IMG/VR virus record: IMGVR_UViG_3300025018_000372
Location: 1-32,952 of that record
DNA: 32,952 bases
Strand: one strand, 5' to 3'
Origin: a virus
Taxonomy: Duplodnaviria; Caudoviricetes
In this document: positions 584-32,634 of the stretch, in pieces
How positions within the stretch are numbered: position 1 is the first letter of the stretch
How the letters are laid out: the number at the start of each line of letters is the position of its first letter
Made by a program: the position numbers and the translations under genes
The notes under the pieces: generated by a model
Told to the model about the DNA's origin: nothing
Databases searched by the model: none
Seen by the model: only the letters and a program-made list of their open reading frames with translations

Positions 584-2695
584 TTACAGGCTCCTCGGAA
601 TATCGACAGACAAGGCCATCCGAAGGGTTGGATGGGCTGCGCTGATACTAATGGCCGTGACTCGACCAAGCCCGGCAGGGATGGAAAGGATGTCGCCTGG
701 CAGTATTTCGCGCCCTGAGTCGGTGGTGAACCAGGTTGTCGTCAACTGGTAACGATCAAACCCTTGTCCGTTTTCGTCAAGATAATTCCGCGCCCAAAGT
801 TCAGCCGCCAGTGGGCTGGTGCAGAGTGGGTGCATCAGATGATCGGGAGACAAGGTGTCTGCGGCCCCTCGCCGGGCGTCGGTGAGCACGTCGGTCATGG
901 GTTCGCCGCTGGTGACAATGATCTGTATGGCTTGGCCGTAATATTGAGGAAAATCGACGCGAACTCTGCGAGAGCGCAGGCTATAACTGATGGTGGCCAG
1001 ACTGTATCCTGCGGTTGCCGTTGTGATTTCACCAGTTTCAATGTCGAGACTCATTAACCCCAAATCTGTTGCTGTCCCGTAATCGTAGGAATCGAGACTG
1101 ACGACCTGGCCACTGACCTGGGCCACACCCTCAATGATTTCTATTCTTTGTGTGTGGTTGGTGATGTACGCCCCCAGATCGGTGACACTGACCGTACCCA
1201 GATCACTGGTTGCGGTGGTAATGCTGGCGTCAGGGTCGCATTGCACAGCCAGGGTGACACTGCTTGGATCAGTAGTTTCATCGCGCTCAATTTCGCTGAT
1301 TGAGATATTAGCACTGTTGAGCTCATCAGGTGGCCTGCCGACAAAGACGCGGTTATACCCTGGGCGGATATTGTAGCTTTGCCCCAGGGTGGTGACAGTG
1401 CTTTCTGTCAGCACTGCGTCGGAGATATAATTTCCAACAGATTGTTTATGTCGGGGACGAATTATCAGGCGACCGTCGGCGCGACTGATCAGTACCGAGC
1501 CGCAGGCTTGCGCGACCTGATTGCAGATTTCAACCTCGGTCAGCTGCTCGGCTGTCCAGCGATCGACCGGCCAGTCTGGAATCGCTGTGGTATCGGCCTG
1601 GGCAGCAATGGCGCAACTGCTGCTGTCGATGTATGTTTGTGTTTTTGGCACAGAGCTGAGATTTGCGCTAATAGACCTGGCTTCGATGCTGTAGCGCGTT
1701 TGGGGGTATTGCTGTTGCAGGTCGCGACTGACAATTTGCATCCGCCAGATAATATTATGGATGGTGATGATGATTTCGCTGTCGGGCAGACAGAGATCAT
1801 AATCCGTGTCGCGTTGCAGGGTCGCGCGGCACAACCAGGCATAACTTTCTTCGTCAGCGCTTAAGGTCAGATCGAGCAGCTTGACCTGCTGACCAGCAAC
1901 CTGGGCGCTAACGATTCCGGGGATAGCCCCGGCGTAGGTGTAAAAATCAGGAACGGCGGTGGAAAGTGACACACGCGTTGGCGGTAGCGCATGCGACAAC
2001 TGCGGCGTCAGCGAGGAAACGTCTAAAACCAGAGTGGCTACCGGCAAGACCGGAGATGAATCTGGTGGTGGTGGCGGGGGGGATCCCGTGATCGGGTTGG
2101 CGAGGAGATCAGCCCTGGCGTTTGCATCCAGCACCCCATCCCACACTGCAATATTATCAAGGCTGTCAACCCAATCGAAATCAGGGTATCCAGCAAATCC
2201 GAGGCCGAAATTTACGCTGACTAAATCTTGAGGGTCAAAACTTGTCATGACCGGAGTCGTCATCCCGCCGATATAAACTTCGGCGGTATTGGTCTGGAAG
2301 CTGGTGTTATAGCTGACGTTTATGACTACCAGCAGGGCTGCGGTCAGGGCGAAAGTTGCCGATTGTGTCCCGTAATACCATTCTGTGGGTTTGTAATATT
2401 CGAGCACTCGCTCTTGCGCGCCAAATTGCAACCGTAATGGGCAAACATCGTCTGGGACACTTGGCGATGACCAGAAAGAAAGGGCAAAGTCACCCGCCGA
2501 CGGAATAGCCGCCAAGGGGACCGACAGTGCTGCACCACTGGCTGCAAACCCAAACGCATTTCCACCGCCGGGGACTCCGGGCTCACTGGTGACCTGTGCC
2601 AGGTTGGTGCCGGTGGCGTCAAATCCGTTTCCGCTGGCATCCGGCACGGTCGCTCCGACCGTTTCGCCGCTGTAGTATGCAATAAGCGTCGCCAC
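584..2695 (-). CDS. Tail tip protein: N-terminal LamG/concanavalin-like domain, Pro linker, C-terminal hub/Tal-like region
   Basis: GTG start at 2695 after an AAGGA RBS. LIAYY..DASGNG..GNAFGF..DFALSFW..WDGVL is a LamG-3-like pattern; PPPPPP linker; VAQACGSVLISRADGRLIIRPR is hub-like. Confidence 0.7.
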   Translation of the reverse strand: MATLIAYYSGETVGATVPDASGNGFDATGTNLAQVTSEPGVPGGGNAFGFAASGAALSVPLAAIPSAGDFALSFWSSPSVPDDVCPLRLQFGAQERVLEYYKPTEWYYGTQSATFALTAALLVVINVSYNTSFQTNTAEVYIGGMTTPVMTSFDPQDLVSVNFGLGFAGYPDFDWVDSLDNIAVWDGVLDANARADLLANPITGSPPPPPPDSSPVLPVATLVLDVSSLTPQLSHALPPTRVSLSTAVPDFYTYAGAIPGIVSAQVAGQQVKLLDLTLSADEESYAWLCRATLQRDTDYDLCLPDSEIIITIHNIIWRMQIVSRDLQQQYPQTRYSIEARSISANLSSVPKTQTYIDSSSCAIAAQADTTAIPDWPVDRWTAEQLTEVEICNQVAQACGSVLISRADGRLIIRPRHKQSVGNYISDAVLTESTVTTLGQSYNIRPGYNRVFVGRPPDELNSANISISEIERDETTDPSSVTLAVQCDPDASITTATSDLGTVSVTDLGAYITNHTQRIEIIEGVAQVSGQVVSLDSYDYGTATDLGLMSLDIETGEITTATAGYSLATISYSLRSRRVRVDFPQYYGQAIQIIVTSGEPMTDVLTDARRGAADTLSPDHLMHPLCTSPLAAELWARNYLDENGQGFDRYQLTTTWFTTDSGREILPGDILSIPAGLGRVTAISISAAHPTLRMALSVDIPRSL

Positions 2696-2708
2696 TGAGG
2701 ATTCCTTG

Positions 2709-3140
2709 CTAGAGATAGGTGCCGGTGACGAGACCGGCGGTGTTGACCACCAGGGTATAGTCTGTGCCCACAACGGCAATATCTGCCGGGGGGTTATTGA
2801 GCAGATAGCTGAGCAGGGGCGGGTTCAGCTTGGCGTCAAGCGTGCCACTGTAATAGATGATGGCACGCCGAAACGTTGCGGTTAACGACGGCCAAACAAT
2901 ATCATCAGCATCGGCGACAAAGCCGGTGGCGCTGCCGCTCAGAACTTCTCCGGTGATATCGGCACCGCCCGCAGTGTAACCGGTGCCGGAAATTTCATGG
3001 GCGCTGATACTGCTGAGCAGTTCATGCGTGGGGTCCATAGTGTACGCGCTTGACACCAACATGACCTTCAGCGGACCAACCATCGCGCCCAGGGCAACAA
3101 GTTTTGCGGTGTGGTTGTATTTTTCGACAGACACGGACAT
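2709..3140 (-). CDS. Conserved phage tail/virion protein
   Basis: 143 aa; LKVMLVSSAYT...EISGTGYTAGG...DADDIVW motif common in tail modules. Confidence 0.7.
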   Translation of the reverse strand: MSVSVEKYNHTAKLVALGAMVGPLKVMLVSSAYTMDPTHELLSSISAHEISGTGYTAGGADITGEVLSGSATGFVADADDIVWPSLTATFRRAIIYYSGTLDAKLNPPLLSYLLNNPPADIAVVGTDYTLVVNTAGLVTGTYL

Positions 3141-3776
3141 TTATGCACATCCTTTCTTGCTGCGGTGCAAATCGTCAAACATGGCTCTGACCTCGGCCAG
3201 GCTGGTGAGTTTGCGAAACGGTGTTCCGGGGGCCAGACGCACAAAATCGCGCGATGTGGCCAGGTCGTGCCGGAAGTAGGGGGTTAATTCCTGCGGATCG
3301 ATAGTGGCGGTGTGGGGCAGCGGCCCCCAGTCGACATCAACATCAAAGCTTTTGGGAGACTGGTCGAGATAATATTCCAGCATTTTTTTCACGCCTTTGG
3401 CCTGGGGTGGTGCGGCGAGAAAATACAGGGCACCGGTGGTCAGCATGAGGGTTTGCGACGCGCTGTAGCCTGCGACGAATTCCGGCAAGCGGTAAATTTG
3501 TGGGGTGACGTAAATATCGGCATCCAGATAAATGCCGCCGACCTCGTACAGGATCGCCAGGCGCAAAAGCGCGGCCTGCACCGAGGGAAGAGACGCGGTG
3601 CTGTGGTGGTGAATAGTGATATTATCGAAAGCCTCGCGGTAGCCGTAGCGGGACAAAAATCGCCGGGATGCTCGCTGGTTGTAGATGCGATGCTTGACAT
3701 TACGCAGGTGCGCCGCGTTGGCGGTGCGATAAATTCCATAATTTGGGTTGTCGTTGTGGTTAACCTGAAACATCAT
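3141..3776 (-). CDS. Glycosyltransferase, GT32/DXD sugar-binding (Och1-like) family
   Basis: LLRLAILYEVGGIYLDAD motif, then FLAAPP and WGP; start MMFQVN at 3776, 1 bp after the upstream stop. Confidence 0.75.
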   Translation of the reverse strand: MMFQVNHNDNPNYGIYRTANAAHLRNVKHRIYNQRASRRFLSRYGYREAFDNITIHHHSTASLPSVQAALLRLAILYEVGGIYLDADIYVTPQIYRLPEFVAGYSASQTLMLTTGALYFLAAPPQAKGVKKMLEYYLDQSPKSFDVDVDWGPLPHTATIDPQELTPYFRHDLATSRDFVRLAPGTPFRKLTSLAEVRAMFDDLHRSKKGCA

Positions 3777-16414: not shown

Positions 16415-17004
16415 CAGATACCTAATGCCTCGTGGATCAGTGCGATGGTTTCGGGGGTGACCCCGGCCTGCCGTGCGGTTTTGTCAACGGTTGCTGCGGC
16501 ATCGGCCAGAACTTGTTTGCGAATTTCCTGATCTCGCTTGACATTGATACTCGCCCCCTGCTCCAGCCGCTGCACCGCCAGGGCCAGGGCTTTGACCTGG
16601 TCTATAGTGGCGGTCATGGTTTCGGGGTCGGAAATGTCGGCGTCTTGTAATTTCAAACTCAGGTCAAACGCCATGCTGCGCAGCATCTCGTTGATGAGCA
16701 GCCCCACCTGACCCTGCGGGGCCGCGCCGACTTTGCTGATAAACAGCTCGGCGACCTCGCGGCTTTGACGCAGCTTGGTGCCAACTTCGTCCATGCGCAG
16801 GGCGTAGCGGTTGACCGCACTTTTACTGAGACGTTCGGGCGCGTCGGCGGGCAGCTGCCCGGCGTGCTGCATATCGGCCAGCAGGGCGTTGATGCGGTCA
16901 ACGGCCTGTAGCTGCGTCACCCGGCGATCGTTGAGCAGCTCTTGCAGCTGCTGGCGGATGCTGTCGGGTAAAAGATCGATGCTCGATTGCTGGCGACCGC
17001 CCAT
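16414..17004 (-). CDS. Terminase small subunit (Mu gp27, DUF3486)
   Basis: SSIDLLP..LSKSAVNRY motif; synteny. Confidence 0.85.
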   Translation of the reverse strand: MGGRQQSSIDLLPDSIRQQLQELLNDRRVTQLQAVDRINALLADMQHAGQLPADAPERLSKSAVNRYALRMDEVGTKLRQSREVAELFISKVGAAPQGQVGLLINEMLRSMAFDLSLKLQDADISDPETMTATIDQVKALALAVQRLEQGASINVKRDQEIRKQVLADAAATVDKTARQAGVTPETIALIHEALGI

Positions 17005-17006
17005 AA

Positions 17007-17306
17007 TTACCCCCTGGGGCCGGGGCGTTTGACGCCGTCAACGCGGGCCGCGCCGGTGGCGACATCGGCCCCACGAGCGCAGAGGGTGGCGACCAGCACA
17101 GTCCCCACCGTTTCGAGAGTGACCAGGCCCTGCTCTTCTAACCAGCGCAGCTCGGTGCGCACGCGGTCGCGGCTGAGGTTGTGACCGTATTCAGCCAGGG
17201 CGGCGCGCAAAATCGAATCGTTCAGGGCGTAGCCGGTGCCCTCGTTGAGCAGGCGCAGCAGCACCAGGCGGATGTCGGCGGCGAGGAGTTGAATAAAGGC
17301 GGTCAT
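17007..17306 (-). CDS. Mu gp26-like winged-helix protein
   Basis: RLVLLRLL..SRDRVRTELRWLEEQGLV..RGADVATG..GVKRP. Confidence 0.8.
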   Translation of the reverse strand: MTAFIQLLAADIRLVLLRLLNEGTGYALNDSILRAALAEYGHNLSRDRVRTELRWLEEQGLVTLETVGTVLVATLCARGADVATGAARVDGVKRPGPRG

Positions 17307-17734
17307 TTTTTTGCGCGTCCTCCCTCGTTAATCAAAAATTCATTGATGAGTGCCAGGGTGTGATTCAGGCCGTCCAGCCTGCCCTCGACCGTGCCGAGTT
17401 TGCGGGTCAGACCGTTGATGTCGTGAGACAAAACCGCCATTTCCTGCCGGTTGGGCATGTTACGGATCTCGCCGCCGACGCGGCTTAATGACAGCTCAAG
17501 TTCGCCGGTGCGCAGCTGGTGCGCACGGCAATCGGCGGTGCGGGCATCCTCGGCGGCCTGGTGATCTTGCGTGGGCATGCACTTGGCGAACTGGCGTTCC
17601 AGCTCTAAAAAGCGTGCGGCGGTCACCTTGGCCCGGTTACTCCACCAGGTATAAATGCCCAGGGCGGCCAGCCCGAACGATTGCAGCACGGCAAACCAGA
17701 ACTGCCAGGCTTGATAATTGGTGGGTTCGGTCAT
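17303..17734 (-). CDS. DUF2730-like membrane/coiled-coil protein (Mu gp25-like)
   Basis: N-terminal TM helix, C-terminal coiled coil; synteny. Confidence 0.7.
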   Translation of the reverse strand: MTEPTNYQAWQFWFAVLQSFGLAALGIYTWWSNRAKVTAARFLELERQFAKCMPTQDHQAAEDARTADCRAHQLRTGELELSLSRVGGEIRNMPNRQEMAVLSHDINGLTRKLGTVEGRLDGLNHTLALINEFLINEGGRAKK

Positions 17735-17952
17735 GCTGTCCTCTCGAAACGTCGTTGACAGTCGATGCAGCGCAGCGCGGCTGGGTTGACCCGCAAGCGG
17801 GCCGGGGCGATGGGGCTATCGCAGTCGATACAGATCCCTGATTCGGGCGTATGGTCATACGCCCCCACCCCGCATTTGCGATAATGAGCGTCCATGGCCT
17901 GCTGCTGATACAGCTCGTTGTGGTACTGCGCCCGGTCAATCTCATCAGCCAT
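17731..17952 (-). CDS. TraR/DksA C4 zinc-finger protein
   Basis: MADEIDRAQ..CIDCDSPIAPARL..P..RCIDCQ. Confidence 0.88.
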   Translation of the reverse strand: MADEIDRAQYHNELYQQQAMDAHYRKCGVGAYDHTPESGICIDCDSPIAPARLRVNPAALRCIDCQRRFERTA

Positions 17953-17954
17953 GG

Positions 17955-18248
17955 TTAGCTCTTGTCCGCCTTGACTTTTTGCACGGCGGCCTCGATGGCG
18001 GCGTTGATCATGGAGATCGTGACCCCGGCCCCGATTTCGATGCCGCGCTGACGCAGCTGGCTGATAATCAACTGCTGTGCCTGGGCGCGTTTCTCGTCGT
18101 CACTGCCGCCGGTTGCATTCAGGGCCACCGCCTGCACCGCCGCGGTGGCCGATGCGGCCAGGATCGGGCCGATTTCGGAGAGGAACATCCCTAGAAACGG
18201 TTTTAAAAAACCGCCAATACTCGAAAAAATCAGTTTAAGCCAGGTCAT
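17955..18248 (-). CDS. Putative holin (LL-H-like)
   Basis: 97 aa, hydrophobic/amphipathic N-terminus; EKR..A..INAAIEAAV motif; lysis cassette position. Confidence 0.55.
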   Translation of the reverse strand: MTWLKLIFSSIGGFLKPFLGMFLSEIGPILAASATAAVQAVALNATGGSDDEKRAQAQQLIISQLRQRGIEIGAGVTISMINAAIEAAVQKVKADKS

Positions 18249-18257
18249 ACAGTCTCC

Positions 18258-18725
18258 TTACCTCGACGTGAAAAGGCGCTTTATCCAGCTCAGCAGCAGG
18301 CTGTCCCAGTTCAAATACCAGGTGCGCGAGATGAGCAATGCGGTGGTGTATTTGTGGTCGATGGGGTTTTTCCCGTTCCAGAACCAGGGGCCGCCAAAGT
18401 GCCGAACCGCCGCGAAATACACCATCACCCGGCGGCGGCGCAGCCAGCGCAGCCACCAGGGGCCACCGGCGGCACTGACCAGCCGCAGCAGGTTATTGCG
18501 AAAGACATCGTCGGCCTCGTTTTTGTCGGCCACAGTTTCACCGGCCACGTACATCCAGTCATGGATGTCGCACGCAGGCGTGATTTTCAGTCCCCAGATG
18601 GTGTCTGGCACCATATCGTTGAGCCAGCCGCCGGGGCCACACCCGTTGGACACCTGAGCGCGCACGTCGGCGCTGGCGGACACATAGGCGGGCGGGGCGT
18701 AGAGATCGACATTAACGGTTTTCAT
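18258..18725 (-). CDS. Phospholipase A2-like / DUF1353-like protein
   Basis: NGCGP..ACDIHDWMY..ADDVF pattern (C-x2-HD-x2-Y) and YFAAVRHFG. Confidence 0.6.
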   Translation of the reverse strand: MKTVNVDLYAPPAYVSASADVRAQVSNGCGPGGWLNDMVPDTIWGLKITPACDIHDWMYVAGETVADKNEADDVFRNNLLRLVSAAGGPWWLRWLRRRRVMVYFAAVRHFGGPWFWNGKNPIDHKYTTALLISRTWYLNWDSLLLSWIKRLFTSR

Positions 18726-19287
18726 TGTGGGCAAAACCCTTTAGACCGTCGCACAGGGCGGTGGCGATCAGGTCTTGAATGTCCTGGTTTTGTAACCAGA
18801 TGCGCTCGGCGGGGTTGGATAAAAACCCCATTTCCACCAGCACCGCCGGGCAGGCGGTGTTTTTCAGTACGTAGAAATTCGATTCCTTGTCCAGGTCGCC
18901 ATCACAGGCGTCTGTGCGTAACCGGCTGGCCGGGAAGACGTCGCGCAGGGCCATACAGATCATGTCGGCGGCAACATCGGCCTGGGTTTCGCCTGGGCTG
19001 GTGAACACTTCCAGCCCGCGCACGCCGGGGCTTGAAAAGCTGTTGCAGTGCAGGCTGATAAACAGATCGGCGTTTGTGAGGCGCTCAATTTGGCAGCGGT
19101 CGGCCAGGGCAACGCCATAGTCTGCGTGGCGGGTCAGGCGGGCGGCCATGCCTGCGGCTTCGACGGCACCGTACAATCGCCGGGCAACGTGCAGATTAAT
19201 ATCGCACTCGCGCACGCCGTCGTGAACTGCGCCGGGGTCAGCACCGCCGTGGCCTGGATCAATAAGGATGCGAGTTTTTTTGTTCAT
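18712..19287 (-). CDS. Endolysin, N-acetylmuramoyl-L-alanine amidase (Amidase_3)
   Basis: IDPGHGGADPGA, E at RECD, FISLHCN, AVLVEMGFLSN; start MNKKTRIL after GGGAG. Confidence 0.92.
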   Translation of the reverse strand: MNKKTRILIDPGHGGADPGAVHDGVRECDINLHVARRLYGAVEAAGMAARLTRHADYGVALADRCQIERLTNADLFISLHCNSFSSPGVRGLEVFTSPGETQADVAADMICMALRDVFPASRLRTDACDGDLDKESNFYVLKNTACPAVLVEMGFLSNPAERIWLQNQDIQDLIATALCDGLKGFAHNENR

Positions 19288-19346
19288 GGCAGCTCCCTGA
19301 GGGTTGGAATAAACTACCAATGTAGAGCGGCGAGGGAAGTTGAACA

Positions 19347-19364
19347 GCGTCATTTATTTGACGC
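19347..19364. promoter_or_regulatory. Dyad between divergent lysis and + strand operons; candidate Mor/C activator site
   Basis: GCGTCA-TTTATT-TGACGC perfect inverted repeat near the middle of the 128-bp divergent gap. Confidence 0.4.
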
Positions 19365-19415
19365 CTTGCGCGCGGGGTATTTTAGCGGCGTGGGGGGCAC
19401 ATTTCAGGAGGCACC

Positions 19416-19742
19416 ATGGAGCAGTTGGCGGATTTTTACCGCGGAGCGACAAAACGCTGGCGCATAGAGTTTAGCGAGAACATCGCCGGGTCGGCGATTT
19501 ACTTCAGAATGGCGCGGTCGCTGTCGCAGTTGGCCCCCGACATTGAAGTGGCGGCGACCCTGGACACGCCGGATGTCGAGGGCGCGGTGTTTGGGGCAAC
19601 GCTGGAAATCAGCGCCGAGCTGTCGCTGTCGGCCCCTGCGGGTGATTATTATGCCGAGCATCAATGGGTGACCGCCAGCGGCGACTCGCTGCCGTTTTTG
19701 AACCAGAAAATAGCTCTGAAACTGGGCGTGCCACGGGCATAA
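19416..19742 (+). CDS. Stand-alone BppU-N/Ig-like adaptor domain protein
   Basis: AGGAGG RBS; FYRGAT..W.I.F...AGDYY.E.QW..SG pattern resembles fibre-attachment N-domains. Confidence 0.5.
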   Translation: MEQLADFYRGATKRWRIEFSENIAGSAIYFRMARSLSQLAPDIEVAATLDTPDVEGAVFGATLEISAELSLSAPAGDYYAEHQWVTASGDSLPFLNQKIALKLGVPRA

Positions 19743-19743
19743 C

Positions 19744-20340
19744 ATGGAGACAATCCGCGTTAGCTCCAGCGCCGTCACCCTGACACCGCAGCTCCCTGCG
19801 CCGCAAATTGTGCGGCCTGAACTGGTGAGCGAAACCCTCGCTCTGGGTCTGGTGCAACAAAACCTGCGCCTGACGCTGTGCCCGCACAGTGACGGGCCGT
19901 TTCTGTTGCCTGCGCCAGTTCAACCGCAGCTGGTGGTGCCCGTGGTGCAAGAAACGCTGGCGGTGGAGGTTCCGGCGGTGCTAAGTTCCCCGCCGGCGGA
20001 GGTTTTTGCCCCTGCCCCGTTGCCGATTGTAGACCAAGGTGTGACGCGGGGCCGGGCGCTGTTAGACCTGTCGCTGGGCCAGGCGTTCCGCATTAACTGC
20101 CGCTATACCCAGATTATGCAAAACCTCAGCATTGGCACGATCAACTGGCCCACGGGTTTTGTCGAGGTGTTCGTGCTGCTGGAAGCAGTGTCGAGCGTCG
20201 GGTTGCTGGTGGCCTGGGACGACGGAGCGGCTGCACCGCCCTGGCGTGGGTTAACTACGGAATATCGGCTGACCAGCTGGGATGGGGGCGCGCGCGTGGA
20301 TATTGCGCGGGTGGGTGACTACCCGGCGCTGAAACCATGA
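19744..20340 (+). CDS. Fibre-like protein: Pro/Val-rich stalk plus C-terminal fibre-tip-like domain
   Basis: 198 aa; LDLSLGQAF..NWPTG..VLL..W.DGAAAP..YRLTSWDGG. Confidence 0.5.
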   Translation: METIRVSSSAVTLTPQLPAPQIVRPELVSETLALGLVQQNLRLTLCPHSDGPFLLPAPVQPQLVVPVVQETLAVEVPAVLSSPPAEVFAPAPLPIVDQGVTRGRALLDLSLGQAFRINCRYTQIMQNLSIGTINWPTGFVEVFVLLEAVSSVGLLVAWDDGAAAPPWRGLTTEYRLTSWDGGARVDIARVGDYPALKP

Positions 20341-20711
20341 TGAGGCTGATCGAGAATCCGCCGCGCCGCACGCGGCTGTTTGGCCTGCCGTTTGTGGTGA
20401 TTTCGGCGGTTGCGGGGCGTGATATGGTCATTGATATGGCCAGCGCCCAGGGGGTTGCCCTGGATTGTGCCGGGTTGTCGGGCCACGTTATTTTGCGTTT
20501 TTATTTTGACTGGCTGCCCGCCGGGCGGGTGCGGGTGCCGGTGCTGCTGTTTAATGTGCAAAACTATGGCATCACCGCCTGGACGTTTACCGCCGGTGGC
20601 TGGGTGGGGATTGGCCCGGCGCGGTTGGGCAGCAGTGCCTACGAGCTGCGCACCTGGGATCAAGGAGATACGCTGTGCACCCATGCACCCGCCGTGCATT
20701 TTGGCCCTTGA
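20337..20711 (+). CDS. Paralog of the C-terminal domain of the preceding gene
   Basis: ATGA overlap; IDMASAQ..WLPAG..VLL..W..YELRTWDQG aligns by eye with the previous protein. Confidence 0.5.
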   Translation: MMRLIENPPRRTRLFGLPFVVISAVAGRDMVIDMASAQGVALDCAGLSGHVILRFYFDWLPAGRVRVPVLLFNVQNYGITAWTFTAGGWVGIGPARLGSSAYELRTWDQGDTLCTHAPAVHFGP

Positions 20712-20938
20712 TGCTGGGGCTTATGGCGGGCTGTGCGGCACCGGTTGATCTGCCGCGCCGGGTGATGATGCCGCCGGTGGTGGTGCTGGAGGTGCCGGGT
20801 GCCGGGGCGTTTTTCCCCGCGGCGGGCGGCTGCCCGGCGCTGATCGTGGTGCGTGATTTGCGCGACGCGGAGGTCGTTAAACACGAGTCCGGGCACGCGC
20901 TGTATAACGCAGCGGGGCTGCCGCAACCCTACCCCTGA
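20675..20938 (+). CDS. Small lipoprotein with HExxH motif
   Basis: GTG start 7 nt after AAGGAG; TRRAF..LMAG|C lipobox; VKHESGHALY. Confidence 0.55.
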   Translation: MHPCTRRAFWPLMLGLMAGCAAPVDLPRRVMMPPVVVLEVPGAGAFFPAAGGCPALIVVRDLRDAEVVKHESGHALYNAAGLPQPYP

Positions 20939-20951
20939 GCAAAGAGGACAC

Positions 20952-21695
20952 ATGGACAGTTTCACAGTCACCCTGGGCGAGCGGGTACTGACGGTTGCAG
21001 ACAAAATCCTCACCGGCCCGGTTGGGCCTGCGGGGCCTGCGGGGCCTGCGGGGCCTGCGGGGCCTGCGGGGCCTGCGGGGCCTGCGGGGCAGGACGGCAT
21101 TGTTATGTTCGAGGGGCTGGCCCCCGTGCCGCTTCCTGGCGATCTCTATCAGCCCTTGCGCTGTGCCTTTGCCCTGCCCGACCTGAGCGCTGCGCCGGAG
21201 GTGGCAATCAGTGTCCCCTGTACGGAGTTGCCGACGTCGCCGGGGGGCGGGTTTTACCTGTTCCCCGAGCAGGGCAATTTGTTTTTGAGCGAGATTCCCG
21301 AGATTGCGGCGGGCCTTGATTTTAGTGGGCTGTTTTTGCGGCTGTCCCTGACCCATGGGGCGCTGCAACCCGACGGCCAGTGGCTGATTACGACGGCGAG
21401 CGCGCACGGGTTGGCCAGTGATTCAGGTTCGGGGCGCCTGGTGGGAGTCGATGCCGACGGGCTGCTGCTGGATGTGCCCTGTACGCGGGTATCGGCGACC
21501 GAGCTGCTGGTACCGGGGGCCCTGGGGCCGGGGCTGTTTCCAGCCCCGGTGGTGCTGATGGCGGCGCTGACCTTGACCGCTGCTGATCTGTACGCAGGAG
21601 ATGCGGGATTGTTGGCGTTAAACTTTGGCCCGGAACCCCTGCGCGTGCGCCTGGCGGTGCGTGACCCGGCGGCGGTGCATGTAGTGGGGGTGTAG
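20952..21695 (+). CDS. Collagen-repeat fibre-like protein
   Basis: ATG after GAGGA; GPV(GPA)7GQDG followed by a ~200-aa domain. Confidence 0.65.
   Translation: MDSFTVTLGERVLTVADKILTGPVGPAGPAGPAGPAGPAGPAGPAGQDGIVMFEGLAPVPLPGDLYQPLRCAFALPDLSAAPEVAISVPCTELPTSPGGGFYLFPEQGNLFLSEIPEIAAGLDFSGLFLRLSLTHGALQPDGQWLITTASAHGLASDSGSGRLVGVDADGLLLDVPCTRVSATELLVPGALGPGLFPAPVVLMAALTLTAADLYAGDAGLLALNFGPEPLRVRLAVRDPAAVHVVGV
21024..21086 (+). repeat. Perfect 9-bp tandem repeat (GGGCCTGCG)x7
   Basis: Read directly; encodes (GPA)7. Confidence 0.95.
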
Positions 21696-21697
21696 GG

Positions 21698-22045
21698 CTA
21701 CCAGAGCGTGTCTTGGCGTTCGTCCATTTCGGCCTGGCGCACGCGCGCGATGATGTGATAGATGGCGCGCTCGGTGACCTGGAATTTTTTAGACAGCTGG
21801 CGATGGTTGTTGCCGTTGAACAGTCGGTAAATTTCACGATCGCGCTGACTGATCGCCAGGGCGTATCCGGTACTGATATAGACCTGCTCCCCCCCGAAGG
21901 TCTCGCGCACGCCCTCGGCGGCGTCCAGGCCGCTGCGTTCAGCCAATTCGGCGGGCAGTCCCTGGCGCGTGAGGGTATCGCGCACACTGTCGGCAATCGC
22001 GCGGAGCACCTGGACTCCGCGTTTTTCGTCGATTTTGTCACTCAT
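21698..22045 (-). CDS. mor: Mor/C family transcription activator
   Basis: FGGEQVYI..RDREIYRLFNGNNHRQLSKKFQVTERAIYHII. Confidence 0.9.
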   Translation of the reverse strand: MSDKIDEKRGVQVLRAIADSVRDTLTRQGLPAELAERSGLDAAEGVRETFGGEQVYISTGYALAISQRDREIYRLFNGNNHRQLSKKFQVTERAIYHIIARVRQAEMDERQDTLW

Positions 22046-22845
22046 TTGCGCAGCATCTCCTTGATTTTTTGCGCGGCAGCGATGCCGCGCTGGGTGTCTT
22101 CGGCGGTGCGAGCGGGTGCGTCAATTGTTTGCTGGTGCGGCCTGCCGGGCATGTGGGGTTTGAGCGCGGCGGGGGCGGGCCATTCTTTGAGATCGGTTTG
22201 TAACAAGCCTTTAAACGCGGTGTGCAGGCGGGGCCGGTCGATGGCTTCGATAATCAACTGATAGCTGCCGGCGATGGCGACCAGCCAGATGTCTGCGGTG
22301 AGAGTGATGGTATCGGCGGCCGGGGTGCCGGGGCGCGACAGGGCGACCAGGGCCTGTAAACCGGCGGCGATTTCCTGGCGCAGCCAGTTGGTTCCGGCCC
22401 ATTGGTGCAGGGCGGCCAGGGCCTGGGCACGCTTGCCGGTGGGCGCTGGCTGGGTTGTCTGTGTGACATATTCTGTCACGGCGGGAGCCGGGGTGGTGGT
22501 GTTCTCGACCACCCGTTTCAGATAGTTGTGATTGCTCAGCGGTTTGCCTGCGCCTTCCTGCCGCTTCTGGCGCATGGCGGCGGTGGTCTCTTCCAGCGCC
22601 GGGGCCAGCCGGGCCGGGTCAATGCCCAACGCCAGAACTTCAGTTGCCAGCTTCAGCGCCCGCTGGTGGCTCAGGTCACGCGATGCCGGGCGAAAACAGC
22701 CCAGATAACCAACCAGTGGCCGAAACAGCGGGCCGCTTTGCGCCAGCAGCACCAGCAGTTCGCGCCCGGCTTCGTCGGCAGTAAAGGCTTCGAGGCTGTT
22801 CGAGGCGTGGCAGACCGGGCAGCGCAGCTTCAAAGCTTCCTCCAT
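22042..22845 (-). CDS. Conserved Mu-like phage protein with N-terminal CxxC
   Basis: LRCPVCHA..YLGCFRP..PLSNHNYLKRV..WPAPA. Confidence 0.7.
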   Translation of the reverse strand: MEEALKLRCPVCHASNSLEAFTADEAGRELLVLLAQSGPLFRPLVGYLGCFRPASRDLSHQRALKLATEVLALGIDPARLAPALEETTAAMRQKRQEGAGKPLSNHNYLKRVVENTTTPAPAVTEYVTQTTQPAPTGKRAQALAALHQWAGTNWLRQEIAAGLQALVALSRPGTPAADTITLTADIWLVAIAGSYQLIIEAIDRPRLHTAFKGLLQTDLKEWPAPAALKPHMPGRPHQQTIDAPARTAEDTQRGIAAAQKIKEMLRK

Positions 22846-31479: not shown

Positions 31480-32634
31480 ATGCAGGGTTTTACGGAGAAG
31501 GTTTTAAGGCATGCTGACCACGTAAAGGGGGTTGGTGTTCATTGCCAAACAGAAGAGACGACAAAGCAGGCGTTAATTTTGCCACTGCTTGATATTCTTG
31601 GTTTTTCTCCGTTTGATCCGACGCGAGTTAAGGCGGAGTACGGTGCGGATTTCCCTGGCGCGAAGGCTTCAGAGCGGGTTGATTATGCGTTGTTTTGTCA
31701 AAATCTGCCGGTGATGTTTATTGAGGCAAAGGCGTTCAGCGAAAAACTGACGAATCATTGCCCTCAGCTTGCGAGATATTTTAACGCAACGCCTGAGGTT
31801 GCGGTTGCTGCGATTACGAACGGGTGCGAATGGCGGTTTTTTACAGATTTAGATAATAAGAACATGATGGATCATTCTCCGTTTTTAACTATTAATTTCG
31901 CTGACTTGGATCGCTCATTAGTTAGTCGGCTTTCCTGTTTTCGCTATGACGAGTTCCAGCCTGGTGCGCTTCGTACATTGGCCGAAGAGACTGTTTACTT
32001 GACGGCCTTTACTGAGGCTATCAGCTCAAGCCTTCGAGAACCTGACGTTGATTTCGTGAGGTATGTTGCAGCAAGGGCCGGGATTCAACGGCAGTTAAAT
32101 GCAAAATTTATTGACTTAATAACCCCTATTGTCAAGGTGGCTGTCAGTAAAGCGGTGGGTGAAATGGTCGTGACTGGCTTGTCGATAAAAACCCAACAGG
32201 AGCCTGTTTCTGTCAAGAATGATCCTCTTGAAAATCCTGAGATTGATGATTATGCGGATGTCGTTGATCCGACAAACCCCCGAATTGTTACGACGTATGC
32301 TGAACGTAAAGTGTTCGATATTATTCAAAGTATATTAGGGGCAGATTCTGAAATTGTCGCAAAGGACACTGAAAGTTATTTTTCTATTTTATTCCAGGGA
32401 AAGGTAAACCGATGGTTAATGCGCTATCGTGAAGGGAAAAAGACAGCGACTGTCAGAATGTGCGTCTCGATGGATGATGCGCGGCGGGGTGAGGTGGAAA
32501 GGGCTGGCCTGGTTGTCGGCCCCGGGGATAATATCGAGATCCCAACGCCAGAGCATCTGTTGAGAATTTCAGGAATTATTTTTGATTCTTTTGCACACTG
32601 TAAAAACGATGAGAATTTCAAAAGGCCTATTTAA
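31480..32634 (+). CDS. HsdR_N-like PD-(D/E)xK restriction-endonuclease-like protein
   Basis: TEETTKQALILPLLDILGF, ERVDYAL, FIEAK, QLARYF, TNG.EWRFFTD; AAGGAGG RBS; AT-richer than the core genes. Confidence 0.8.
   Translation: MQGFTEKVLRHADHVKGVGVHCQTEETTKQALILPLLDILGFSPFDPTRVKAEYGADFPGAKASERVDYALFCQNLPVMFIEAKAFSEKLTNHCPQLARYFNATPEVAVAAITNGCEWRFFTDLDNKNMMDHSPFLTINFADLDRSLVSRLSCFRYDEFQPGALRTLAEETVYLTAFTEAISSSLREPDVDFVRYVAARAGIQRQLNAKFIDLITPIVKVAVSKAVGEMVVTGLSIKTQQEPVSVKNDPLENPEIDDYADVVDPTNPRIVTTYAERKVFDIIQSILGADSEIVAKDTESYFSILFQGKVNRWLMRYREGKKTATVRMCVSMDDARRGEVERAGLVVGPGDNIEIPTPEHLLRISGIIFDSFAHCKNDENFKRPI

Follow-up and report, generated by a model that had tools for sequence, protein, structure and literature searches.

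A five-gene cassette reversed between mor and the lysis genes of a Mu-like siphoprophage is probably a relocated virion appendage module

INTRODUCTION

Fibers of T5-like phages are held by a small collar protein: in DT57C, as far as the available text describes it, short N-terminal beta-strands of the fibers augment the sheets of the LtfC collar, and LtfA is anchored in LtfC (PMC10713586). Something comparable may be encoded by a cassette of five plus-strand genes (open reading frames ORF1 to ORF5, positions 19416 to 21695) in IMG/VR virus record IMGVR_UViG_3300025018_000372, whose 32,952 nucleotides (nt) are the window analyzed here. With the LtfC (p132), LtfA, and LtfB genes, the cassette would share a small, predicted all-beta anchor protein encoded beside fiber genes and more than one fiber gene per anchor. 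In contrast to that system, the cassette has no sequence-level family match, its arms are very short (198 and 247 amino acids [aa]) with no long helical stalk, and it adds a free paralog of the tip domain and a lipoprotein, all within a separate divergent operon of a temperate Mu-like phage.

A second relevant arrangement is the pairing of a BppU_N (PF10651) adaptor with collagen fibers in siphophages. Here, too, a putative adaptor precedes proteins built of a strand, GPx triplets, and collagen (as does an ORF1-like adaptor in locus L095), and BppU_N occurs in 11% of the members of a cluster of ORF1 look-alikes, but ORF1 falls under every Pfam threshold and is a stand-alone protein of 108 aa rather than the N terminus of a baseplate protein.

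For the regulation and position of the cassette, the precedents come from Mu and its relatives. [quoted passage not shown] The dyad in the window shares these traits but has activator-spaced −10 elements on both sides, each facing a gene. In the Mu mom region, the divergent promoter momP2 is reported to serve when C is absent and to be lowered by C (PMC4287176). Like the cassette, the tab gene of Pseudomonas phage JBD26 is accessory and lies on the reverse strand within the late region of its Mu-like siphophage; it is reported to be one gene of 83 aa that sits between the terminase genes, has a lysogen promoter of its own, and is paired with an anti-gene (PMC10884400). The cassette differs from tab in having five genes with predicted structural folds, homologs at tail ends, and a predicted promoter of late type, and the position of tab between terminase genes with an anti-gene is not seen in the window, where terS and terL abut (16414) and the cassette lies 2.4 kb from them.

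Small lipoproteins also accompany adsorption genes in T5, where Llp blocks the receptor, according to the portions of the reports available (10.1101/2022.06.28.497910, 10.64898/2026.03.26.714494). ORF4 fits Llp only in its lipobox and gene position: it has no family match, carries a conserved HExGH motif, and is predicted to be expressed late, not early. Cor is another receptor-blocking lipoprotein comparable to Llp. In the temperate phages Mu (G segment, Gin) and P1 (C segment, Cin), fiber genes lie in invertible segments that hold silent alternative 3′ ends in reverse orientation. The cassette, however, comprises an entire operon for which a separate promoter is predicted, and neither an invertase (in family scans that covered 42 of the window's 240 listed ORFs) nor a convincing flanking inverted repeat was seen, as an earlier sequence-only reading of this DNA had also noted.

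We propose, with a probability of about 0.6, that the cassette is a late-expressed virion appendage module that moved out of the tail operon and came to lie reversed between mor and the lysis genes, with an HExGH lipoprotein as a passenger. Within the open-access literature, supplements excluded, we found no description of the module or of a two-sided Mor/C site. Its parts resemble known kinds, none of them past a family threshold, and its layout is unusual.

RESULTS

Homologs of the module lie at the tail end of other elements

ORF1 homologs (27 to 45% identity) were found in eight elements. In six of them, ORF1 and ORF2 occur together (L081, L085 to L088 counted once, L089, L097, L099, and L100), and in the other two, L083 and L101, ORF1 precedes a fiber-like gene. 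In all eight elements, the ORF1 gene is beside fiber genes in the tail region, unlike in the window itself, and the module is co-oriented with the upstream structural genes at their distal end; a reversed module was found in the window alone. (The terms fiber-like, hub, and holin-like are labels given by position and sequence, mostly without a family match.) In addition to L089, four homologous loci came from 401 genomes of the class to which it belongs.

L081 shares a contig with L004, the relative closest to the window phage (87% identity in terL and 79% in the holin). Its ORF1, ORF2, and ORF3 (36, 32, and 36% identical), followed by a small secreted gene, stand at the extreme genome end on the late strand, after a 583-aa fiber-like gene and a DUF4376 gene. 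In L085 to L088, which represent one integrase-type element, the order is tape measure, Dit, LamG-type gene, hub, two small membrane genes, ORF1, ORF2, ORF3, and a secreted gene; in L089, from a Deltaproteobacteria metagenome-assembled genome, it is hub, small membrane gene, ORF1, and ORF2. L097, a Mu-like prophage whose capsid is 67% identical, has hub, ORF1, ORF2, ORF4, and dam, and L100 and L099 have a fiber-like gene, ORF1, and ORF2, followed by ORF4 and dam in the former and by two secreted genes and dam in the latter. The LamG-type tail gene of the window phage is also present in L088, L089, and L097, where no other fiber-sized gene is seen between the hub and the module. True homologs of ORF3 follow ORF2 in L081 and L085 to L088. 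In the homologs, the module sits inside late operons with no evident promoter of its own, the gap upstream being about 40 nt in L081 and 19 nt in L097.

The sequence-only reading had proposed a candidate for an undescribed system; the kit is better called relocated than new, being a tail-end module in all relatives found. In close relatives the mor-lysis slot holds other genes or none, and the module occupied it in 0 of 80 terL loci, many of which are too short to reach the slot.

The reversed cassette is intact and correctly assembled

All five plus-strand ORFs that the sequence-only reading had listed are present, intact, and coupled. Motifs resembling ribosome-binding sites (RBSs) precede ORF1 (AGGAGG), ORF4 (AGGAG), and ORF5 (GAGGA), while ORF2 and ORF3, which have none, each abut or overlap the preceding stop; the orientation is opposite to that of both flanks, the amidase gene and mor, which are on the minus strand. 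The same reading had named misassembly of ordinary tail genes as a possible undoing of its proposal. The homologs are indeed tail-end genes, yet contigs of run X5, whose sample dates from 2025 and carries no flag as a possible source of this DNA, match positions 16500 to 21053 and 21061 to 22124 with zero differences, so that both cassette junctions are covered identically and misassembly does not explain the layout. The gap between these contigs corresponds to the collagen repeat of ORF5. ORF1 and ORF2 were each found on seven contigs from three sources. In runs X3 and X5, a more abundant related phage matches both flanks and not the cassette.

A predicted two-way Mor/C-type promoter

Between the endolysin gene and ORF1 lies a palindromic 12-bp box of Mor/C type (Table 1). 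Its geometry is that of Mor/C-dependent promoters on both sides: a dyad near −43.5, a −10 element, and no properly spaced −35. We described the site by a pattern (box TGA-N6-TCA, then TA-N3-T 23 to 26 nt on) drawn from the sequences ahead of the first lysis gene in the window and in L003 and L004. It has two matches in the 33-kb window, both at this same palindrome, against a mean of 0.21 after shuffling, and a two-sided box arose in 0 of 20,000 intergenic shuffles. Among 52 held-out terL loci, the pattern matched 10 times on the late strand and 4 times on the opposite strand in 310 kb upstream of terL, compared with 3 and 0 times in 283 kb downstream; boxes of this kind stand ahead of lysis-region genes in relatives, the one in L037 preceding a GH108 endolysin gene. 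Across 78 related loci (L003 to L080), there are 25 one-sided boxes and one two-sided box, in L019. On this evidence, the cassette is likely transcribed late from a Mor/C-type site shared with the lysis operon, and the Mor/C-family protein encoded next to ORF5 is the likely activator.

L019 (7356 to 7900) is a transposable phage with a reversed early region, in which a perfectly palindromic box, TGAACGCGTTCA, has −10 hexamers 25 nt off on both sides. Right at this box, a divergent gene for an M15-peptidase endolysin points away from the late operon, and L019 thus serves as a natural control (n = 1) that links two-sided boxes with divergent late genes.

An 18-bp perfect dyad overlapping the box, considered together with TACATT, was initially taken for the Mor site and was replaced by the 12-bp box on comparison with relatives; it could be the site of a second regulator. 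At the other end of the cassette, a terminator-like hairpin on the plus strand (21999 to 22022) lies within the 5′ part of mor; a cassette transcript would pass antisense across most of that gene. No minus-strand terminator was found after mor in the window, whereas relatives have a hairpin plus T-run immediately before their box.

Codon bias dates the reversal as old

Synonymous sites show a genome-wide strand asymmetry, plus-strand genes preferring G and minus-strand genes preferring C at four-fold sites. The cassette has G at 259 of 378 third positions, against 138.5 expected from minus-strand genes after amino acid matching (z = 14, with each ORF at 5 to 8); the plus-strand repressor and hsdR genes reach a z of 10, and minus-strand genes in leave-one-out comparisons range from −2.3 to 2.5. 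Four-fold GC in the cassette (0.80 to 0.88) is at the level of resident genes. This strand-matched bias, combined with the resident GC level, indicates that the reversal is old and not a fresh insertion. Tail-end copies have G-bias z values of 8.3, 4.5, 2.8, 4.8, 3.9, 1.0, and −0.3. Descent of these copies from reversed donors was considered and set aside as weak, as unrelated fiber genes of L081 share the G bias (z = 6.7).

Predicted fiber-type folds in ORF1, ORF2, and ORF3

The domain calls of the sequence-only reading had been made by eye, and they hold as far as predicted folds show, with the exception that the proline-rich stalk is not a conserved trait. Resemblances to fiber and BppU folds were found among predicted models in the ESM Atlas and in Foldseek searches of BFVD. 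The Atlas model of ORF1 (predicted local distance difference test [pLDDT], 0.81) has a feature score of 0.96 to unnamed viral clusters and of 0.93 to clusters with BppU_N in 11% and LtfC in 31% of members. Its Atlas look-alikes are viral proteins of 108 to 117 aa with template modeling (TM) scores of 0.76 to 0.81; the TM score is 0.79 to a cluster with LtfC in 17% of members, which is below the bar at which the tool names a family. These comparisons among models predict an LtfC/BppU-like collar. Neither ORF1 nor its homologs matched PF23926 (LtfC/p132) or PF10651 above the Pfam cutoff, and a word-index search with ORF1 returned only itself. A tblastn search of GenBank phages with ORF1, ORF3, and the remainder of ORF5 gave E values of at least 0.6 or nothing, and nothing came up when viral contigs were scanned for ORF1, ORF5, and P0022, each as a single query, or with the ORF4 alignment.

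In the alignment-based AlphaFold2 model of ORF2, residues 91 to 198 mostly have pLDDT values of 80 to 95, and residues 1 to 81 fall below 50. The C-terminal domain has 153 Foldseek matches in BFVD at an E value of ≤0.001 (best, 4e-8), of which the named ones are mostly tail fiber, fiber, or collagen; the fiber-named matches have root mean square deviations of 2.7 to 3.9 over about 110 to 118 columns and are all predicted models. This domain also ends the longer proteins P0027 and P0029 to P0033. The N-terminal part in most ORF2 homologs consists of acidic/hydrophobic strand repeats about 9 to 10 residues apart (one to six motif matches per N terminus versus zero or one per C-terminal domain), resembling the starts of the fiber-like genes that follow ORF1 in L083, L101, and L095. 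An ORF2 profile search of 1.84 billion proteins yielded nine matches, of which six are credible outside relatives and gave access to the homologous loci, and a search of 391 phylum-level genomes yielded G001 alone; PDB sequence searches gave no credible match. (The ORF2 alignment omits the repetitive P0021 and P0025, and P0027, a more distant fiber-type relative, is omitted from A4 and A9.) ORF3 proved to be a free paralog of the ORF2 tip-like domain, as the sequence-only reading had it (BLASTP E value, 3e-4; hhalign, 97.7% and E value of 1.8e-12), and both ORFs are thus predicted to carry a fiber-type beta domain. The Atlas search with ORF3 itself, with a model pLDDT of 0.34 and scores below 0.9, gave no usable lead, and an ORF3 match in L051 (E value, 5e-3) was dropped as chance once that locus was read.

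ORF4 and ORF5

The lipobox and HExxH motif of ORF4 and the seven GPA triplets of ORF5, both noticed earlier, are present. ORF4 is a candidate mini-zincin by its motifs. Phage homologs 49 to 51% identical stand immediately after ORF2 (L093 and L096), and the HExGH motif is kept in four of four family sequences read (HESGH, HEAGH, HEAGH, and HEVGH; a weak fifth match, L108, was left out). ORF4 ends 13 residues past the motif; the Cys of its CPA motif, conserved in three of three phage copies, is a candidate third zinc ligand. The best Pfam match of the family, to Peptidase_M50B with an E value of 0.049, comes from one homolog only. ORF4 may also be an exclusion factor, as earlier suggested.

One ORF4 relative, an HEVGH lipoprotein gene in L107 (1495 to 1785, minus strand), is flanked by a LysM gene and a dprA-like gene, and 3.3 kb of this locus showed no phage genes; the family may have come from such a host. 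For the small secreted genes that follow ORF3 in L081 and L088, homology to ORF4 was considered but could not be demonstrated (E value, 0.28; no HExxH). The family of the secreted gene after the module varies, including CPVC-type, fibronectin-like (by eye), and HExGH lipoprotein genes (L081, 10893 to 11141; L088, 6304 to 6564; L099, 12531 to 13240), and to judge by sequence this position is a swappable slot for envelope proteins.

ORF5 is likely a second arm, with a short N-terminal strand similar to that of ORF2. Its collagen match (E value, 5.5e-5) is under the Pfam cutoff, and PHROG fiber matches are restricted to the collagen run. Beyond this run, no homolog was found in viral contigs, GenBank phages, PDB sequences, or the 401 genomes, where the remainder had two weak matches interrupted by stops.

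Table 1. Positions of the cassette genes, the predicted promoter elements, and the flanking genes
Feature	Position	Strand	Description
Amidase_3 endolysin	18712..19287	-	First gene of divergent late operon, flank of cassette; Pfam E 4e-44
-10 hexamer TAGTTT, lysis/late operon	19311..19316	-	Predicted; 24 nt from box, box center at -42.5
Mor/C-type box TGAACAGCGTCA	19341..19352	both	Palindromic; predicted to serve both directions
Second perfect dyad GCGTCA-N6-TGACGC	19347..19364	both	18 bp; overlaps box and plus-strand -35 region; only exact match in window
-10 hexamer TATTTT, cassette	19378..19383	+	Predicted; 25 nt from box, box center at -43.5
ORF1	19416..19742	+	108 aa; predicted Ig-like fiber anchor/collar, LtfC/BppU_N-like
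ORF2	19744..20340	+	198 aa; N-terminal strand repeats and C-terminal beta domain of phage-fiber type
ORF3	20337..20711	+	124 aa; stand-alone paralog of ORF2 C-terminal domain
ORF4	20675..20938	+	87 aa; GTG start, AGGAG RBS; predicted lipoprotein with lipobox LMAGC, HESGH, and CPA
ORF5	20952..21695	+	247 aa; short N-terminal strand, collagen (GPA)7, 200-aa orphan region
Mor/C-family late activator	21698..22045	-	Convergent with ORF5, flank; Pfam Mor E 2e-30; PHROG late transcriptional activator

DISCUSSION

A relocated appendage module would work as follows. After induction, the Mor/C protein would bind the box and recruit RNA polymerase in either direction. ORF1 would form a ring around the tail. 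Its sheets would be extended by N-terminal strands from ORF2 and ORF5, by analogy with LtfA in LtfC of DT57C, such that the ORF2/ORF3-type domain and the collagen-borne domain of ORF5 are displayed as short adhesion arms; the free domain of ORF3 might supply an extra tip or aid assembly. ORF4 would be coexpressed as a lipoprotein of the envelope and would most likely act as a small zinc peptidase or a receptor blocker that protects progeny at lysis. Of the modular fiber or whisker kit with exchangeable tips that the sequence-only reading offered as one option, the separately transcribed kit fits these data, and the exchangeable tips are not borne out, there being no invertase or repeat and only variation in gene content between phages. 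Speculatively, by moving away the module may have outlived a replacement of the tail region, whose last genes have the look of more recent acquisitions. We are doubtful of a bolder version, in which the module is a portable clip-on kit for unrelated tails, consisting of a collar, strand-donating arms, and free tips, while the peptidase lipoprotein removes or hides the receptor of the cell undergoing lysis, the two-way Mor/C switch sets the ratio of kit to lysis, head, and tail proteins, and the reversed form is an old reservoir of tail-end copies. This last element draws on the five of seven tail-end copies tested that keep a G-rich bias against their neighbors.

Several observations weigh against an appendage of the tail tip under late control. 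At least three unrelated tail types precede the module, and two or three of them have fiber-like genes of their own (L081, L099, and L100), a distribution that fits awkwardly with a dedicated docking site at the tail tip, and small holin-like genes separate tail and module in L081, L088, and L089. The promoter pattern was drawn by eye from the window, L003, and L004, is circular for those three, and was found in just 8 of 18 relatives' loci inspected. The available account of momP2 (PMC4287176) implies that the plus side could be on without the activator. The single-sequence model of ORF1 is poor (pLDDT, 46), ORF1 to ORF4 and their aligned families have no Pfam, NCBIfam, or PDB sequence match, the fold links are model to model, and ORF5 was not found in any relative.

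Some of these points would suit a module that is expressed late but acts away from the tail tip, as a head or neck decoration or as a free adhesin or decoy complex released at lysis. We consider this unlikely: it accommodates the unrelated tail types, the occasional holin-like genes, and a distant ORF1 relative seen by eye among the T4-like neck genes of L090 (left out, as is L095, of the count of eight elements), and the promoter evidence applies to it equally, but ORF1 directly follows the tail hub in L097 and L083, and the LtfC-type look-alikes anchor tail fibers in the system described for DT57C (PMC10713586). Less likely still is a defense moron expressed in the lysogen, whose structural mimics would poison the assembly of superinfecting phages in the manner of Tab, or whose free tips and lipoprotein would mask the receptor. 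Reverse orientation in an accessory slot recalls tab as reported (PMC10884400), the slot is variable among relatives, momP2 offers a precedent for an activator-independent divergent promoter in what is available of its description (PMC4287176), and small secreted genes follow the module in five of the six elements with ORF1 and ORF2. A −35-like TTGACG also occurs at 19358 to 19363, but it is only 14 nt from TATTTT, and no plus-strand sigma-70 consensus was found, bearing in mind that consensus scans cannot show absence. Against the moron stand as well the homologs within late operons that lack an evident promoter, the lack of a PADLOC match or an evident anti-factor, and the probable late site held in common with lysis, which argues against lysogen-expressed mimics.

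That the cassette is a recently inserted, possibly silent fragment of a foreign tail with no role strikes us as very improbable. The module is missing from the same slot in all relatives examined, and the abundant phage of runs X3 and X5 lacks it between matching flanks, but five intact, coupled frames, codon usage that fully fits the strand and GC level, and a second −10 at activator spacing are not what such a fragment would present. We give next to no credence to an assembly artifact or to an invertible segment caught in one state: all contigs compared are interrupted at the collagen repeat, but the X5 contigs bridge both junctions without differences and show no strand-changing joints, ORF1 and ORF2 recur on contigs from three sources, neither invertase nor flanking repeats were seen, and the strand bias speaks for long residence.

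If the relocated-module reading is right, departure of a tail-end module from the tail operon need not cut its connection to the late program. The analysis defines an unannotated tail-end gene family in temperate phages of deltaproteobacterial type, and the two-sided box of the window and L019 would be a simple way for transposable phages to time inverted late genes. The box also offers a sequence criterion by which divergent late genes can be distinguished from morons expressed in the lysogen, the latter often being assumed from reverse orientation alone, and the strand asymmetry should be useful for dating inversions in Mu-like phages. Should the proteins be just short side fibers, their biology holds little that is unfamiliar, and what is of interest is the layout.

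Other genes of the prophage

Pfam and PHROG scans identified transposase, B, Gam, GemA, Mor, lysis genes, Mu-type terminase, portal, protease, and capsid, and a noncontractile tail, so that the record holds an apparently complete Mu-like siphoprophage with nearly all genes on the minus strand. Its Mu-type ends, recognized by eye, have repeated GTGCCAAA sites near 55 and 32827, and the end near 55 is a 79% match to the end of L081.

In agreement with the sequence-only reading, the scans matched no fiber family in the tail operon, although the last large tail gene (584 to 2779, minus strand; 731 aa) joins a LamG-type N-terminal region, related to stand-alone proteins of L088, L089, and L097, to a hub-like region (phrog_6079). 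Its four-fold GC of 0.64, below the rest of the phage, may hint at later replacement of the tail end. Between two tail genes of this operon is a DXD glycosyltransferase-like gene (3141 to 3776, minus strand; PF04488 E value, 4e-7), possibly involved in virion or host-surface glycosylation; a gene of similar appearance lies near the BppU-like/collagen pair in L095.

Between the repressor and the phage end, an endonuclease-like gene of low GC with an HSDR_N domain (31480 to 32634, plus strand; phrog_4225) is a candidate defense moron with no match in PADLOC. In the lysis cassette, a 158-aa gene (18258 to 18734, minus strand) has weak matches to DUF1353 and to prokaryotic phospholipase A2, and the same place is kept in L003, L004, and L008.

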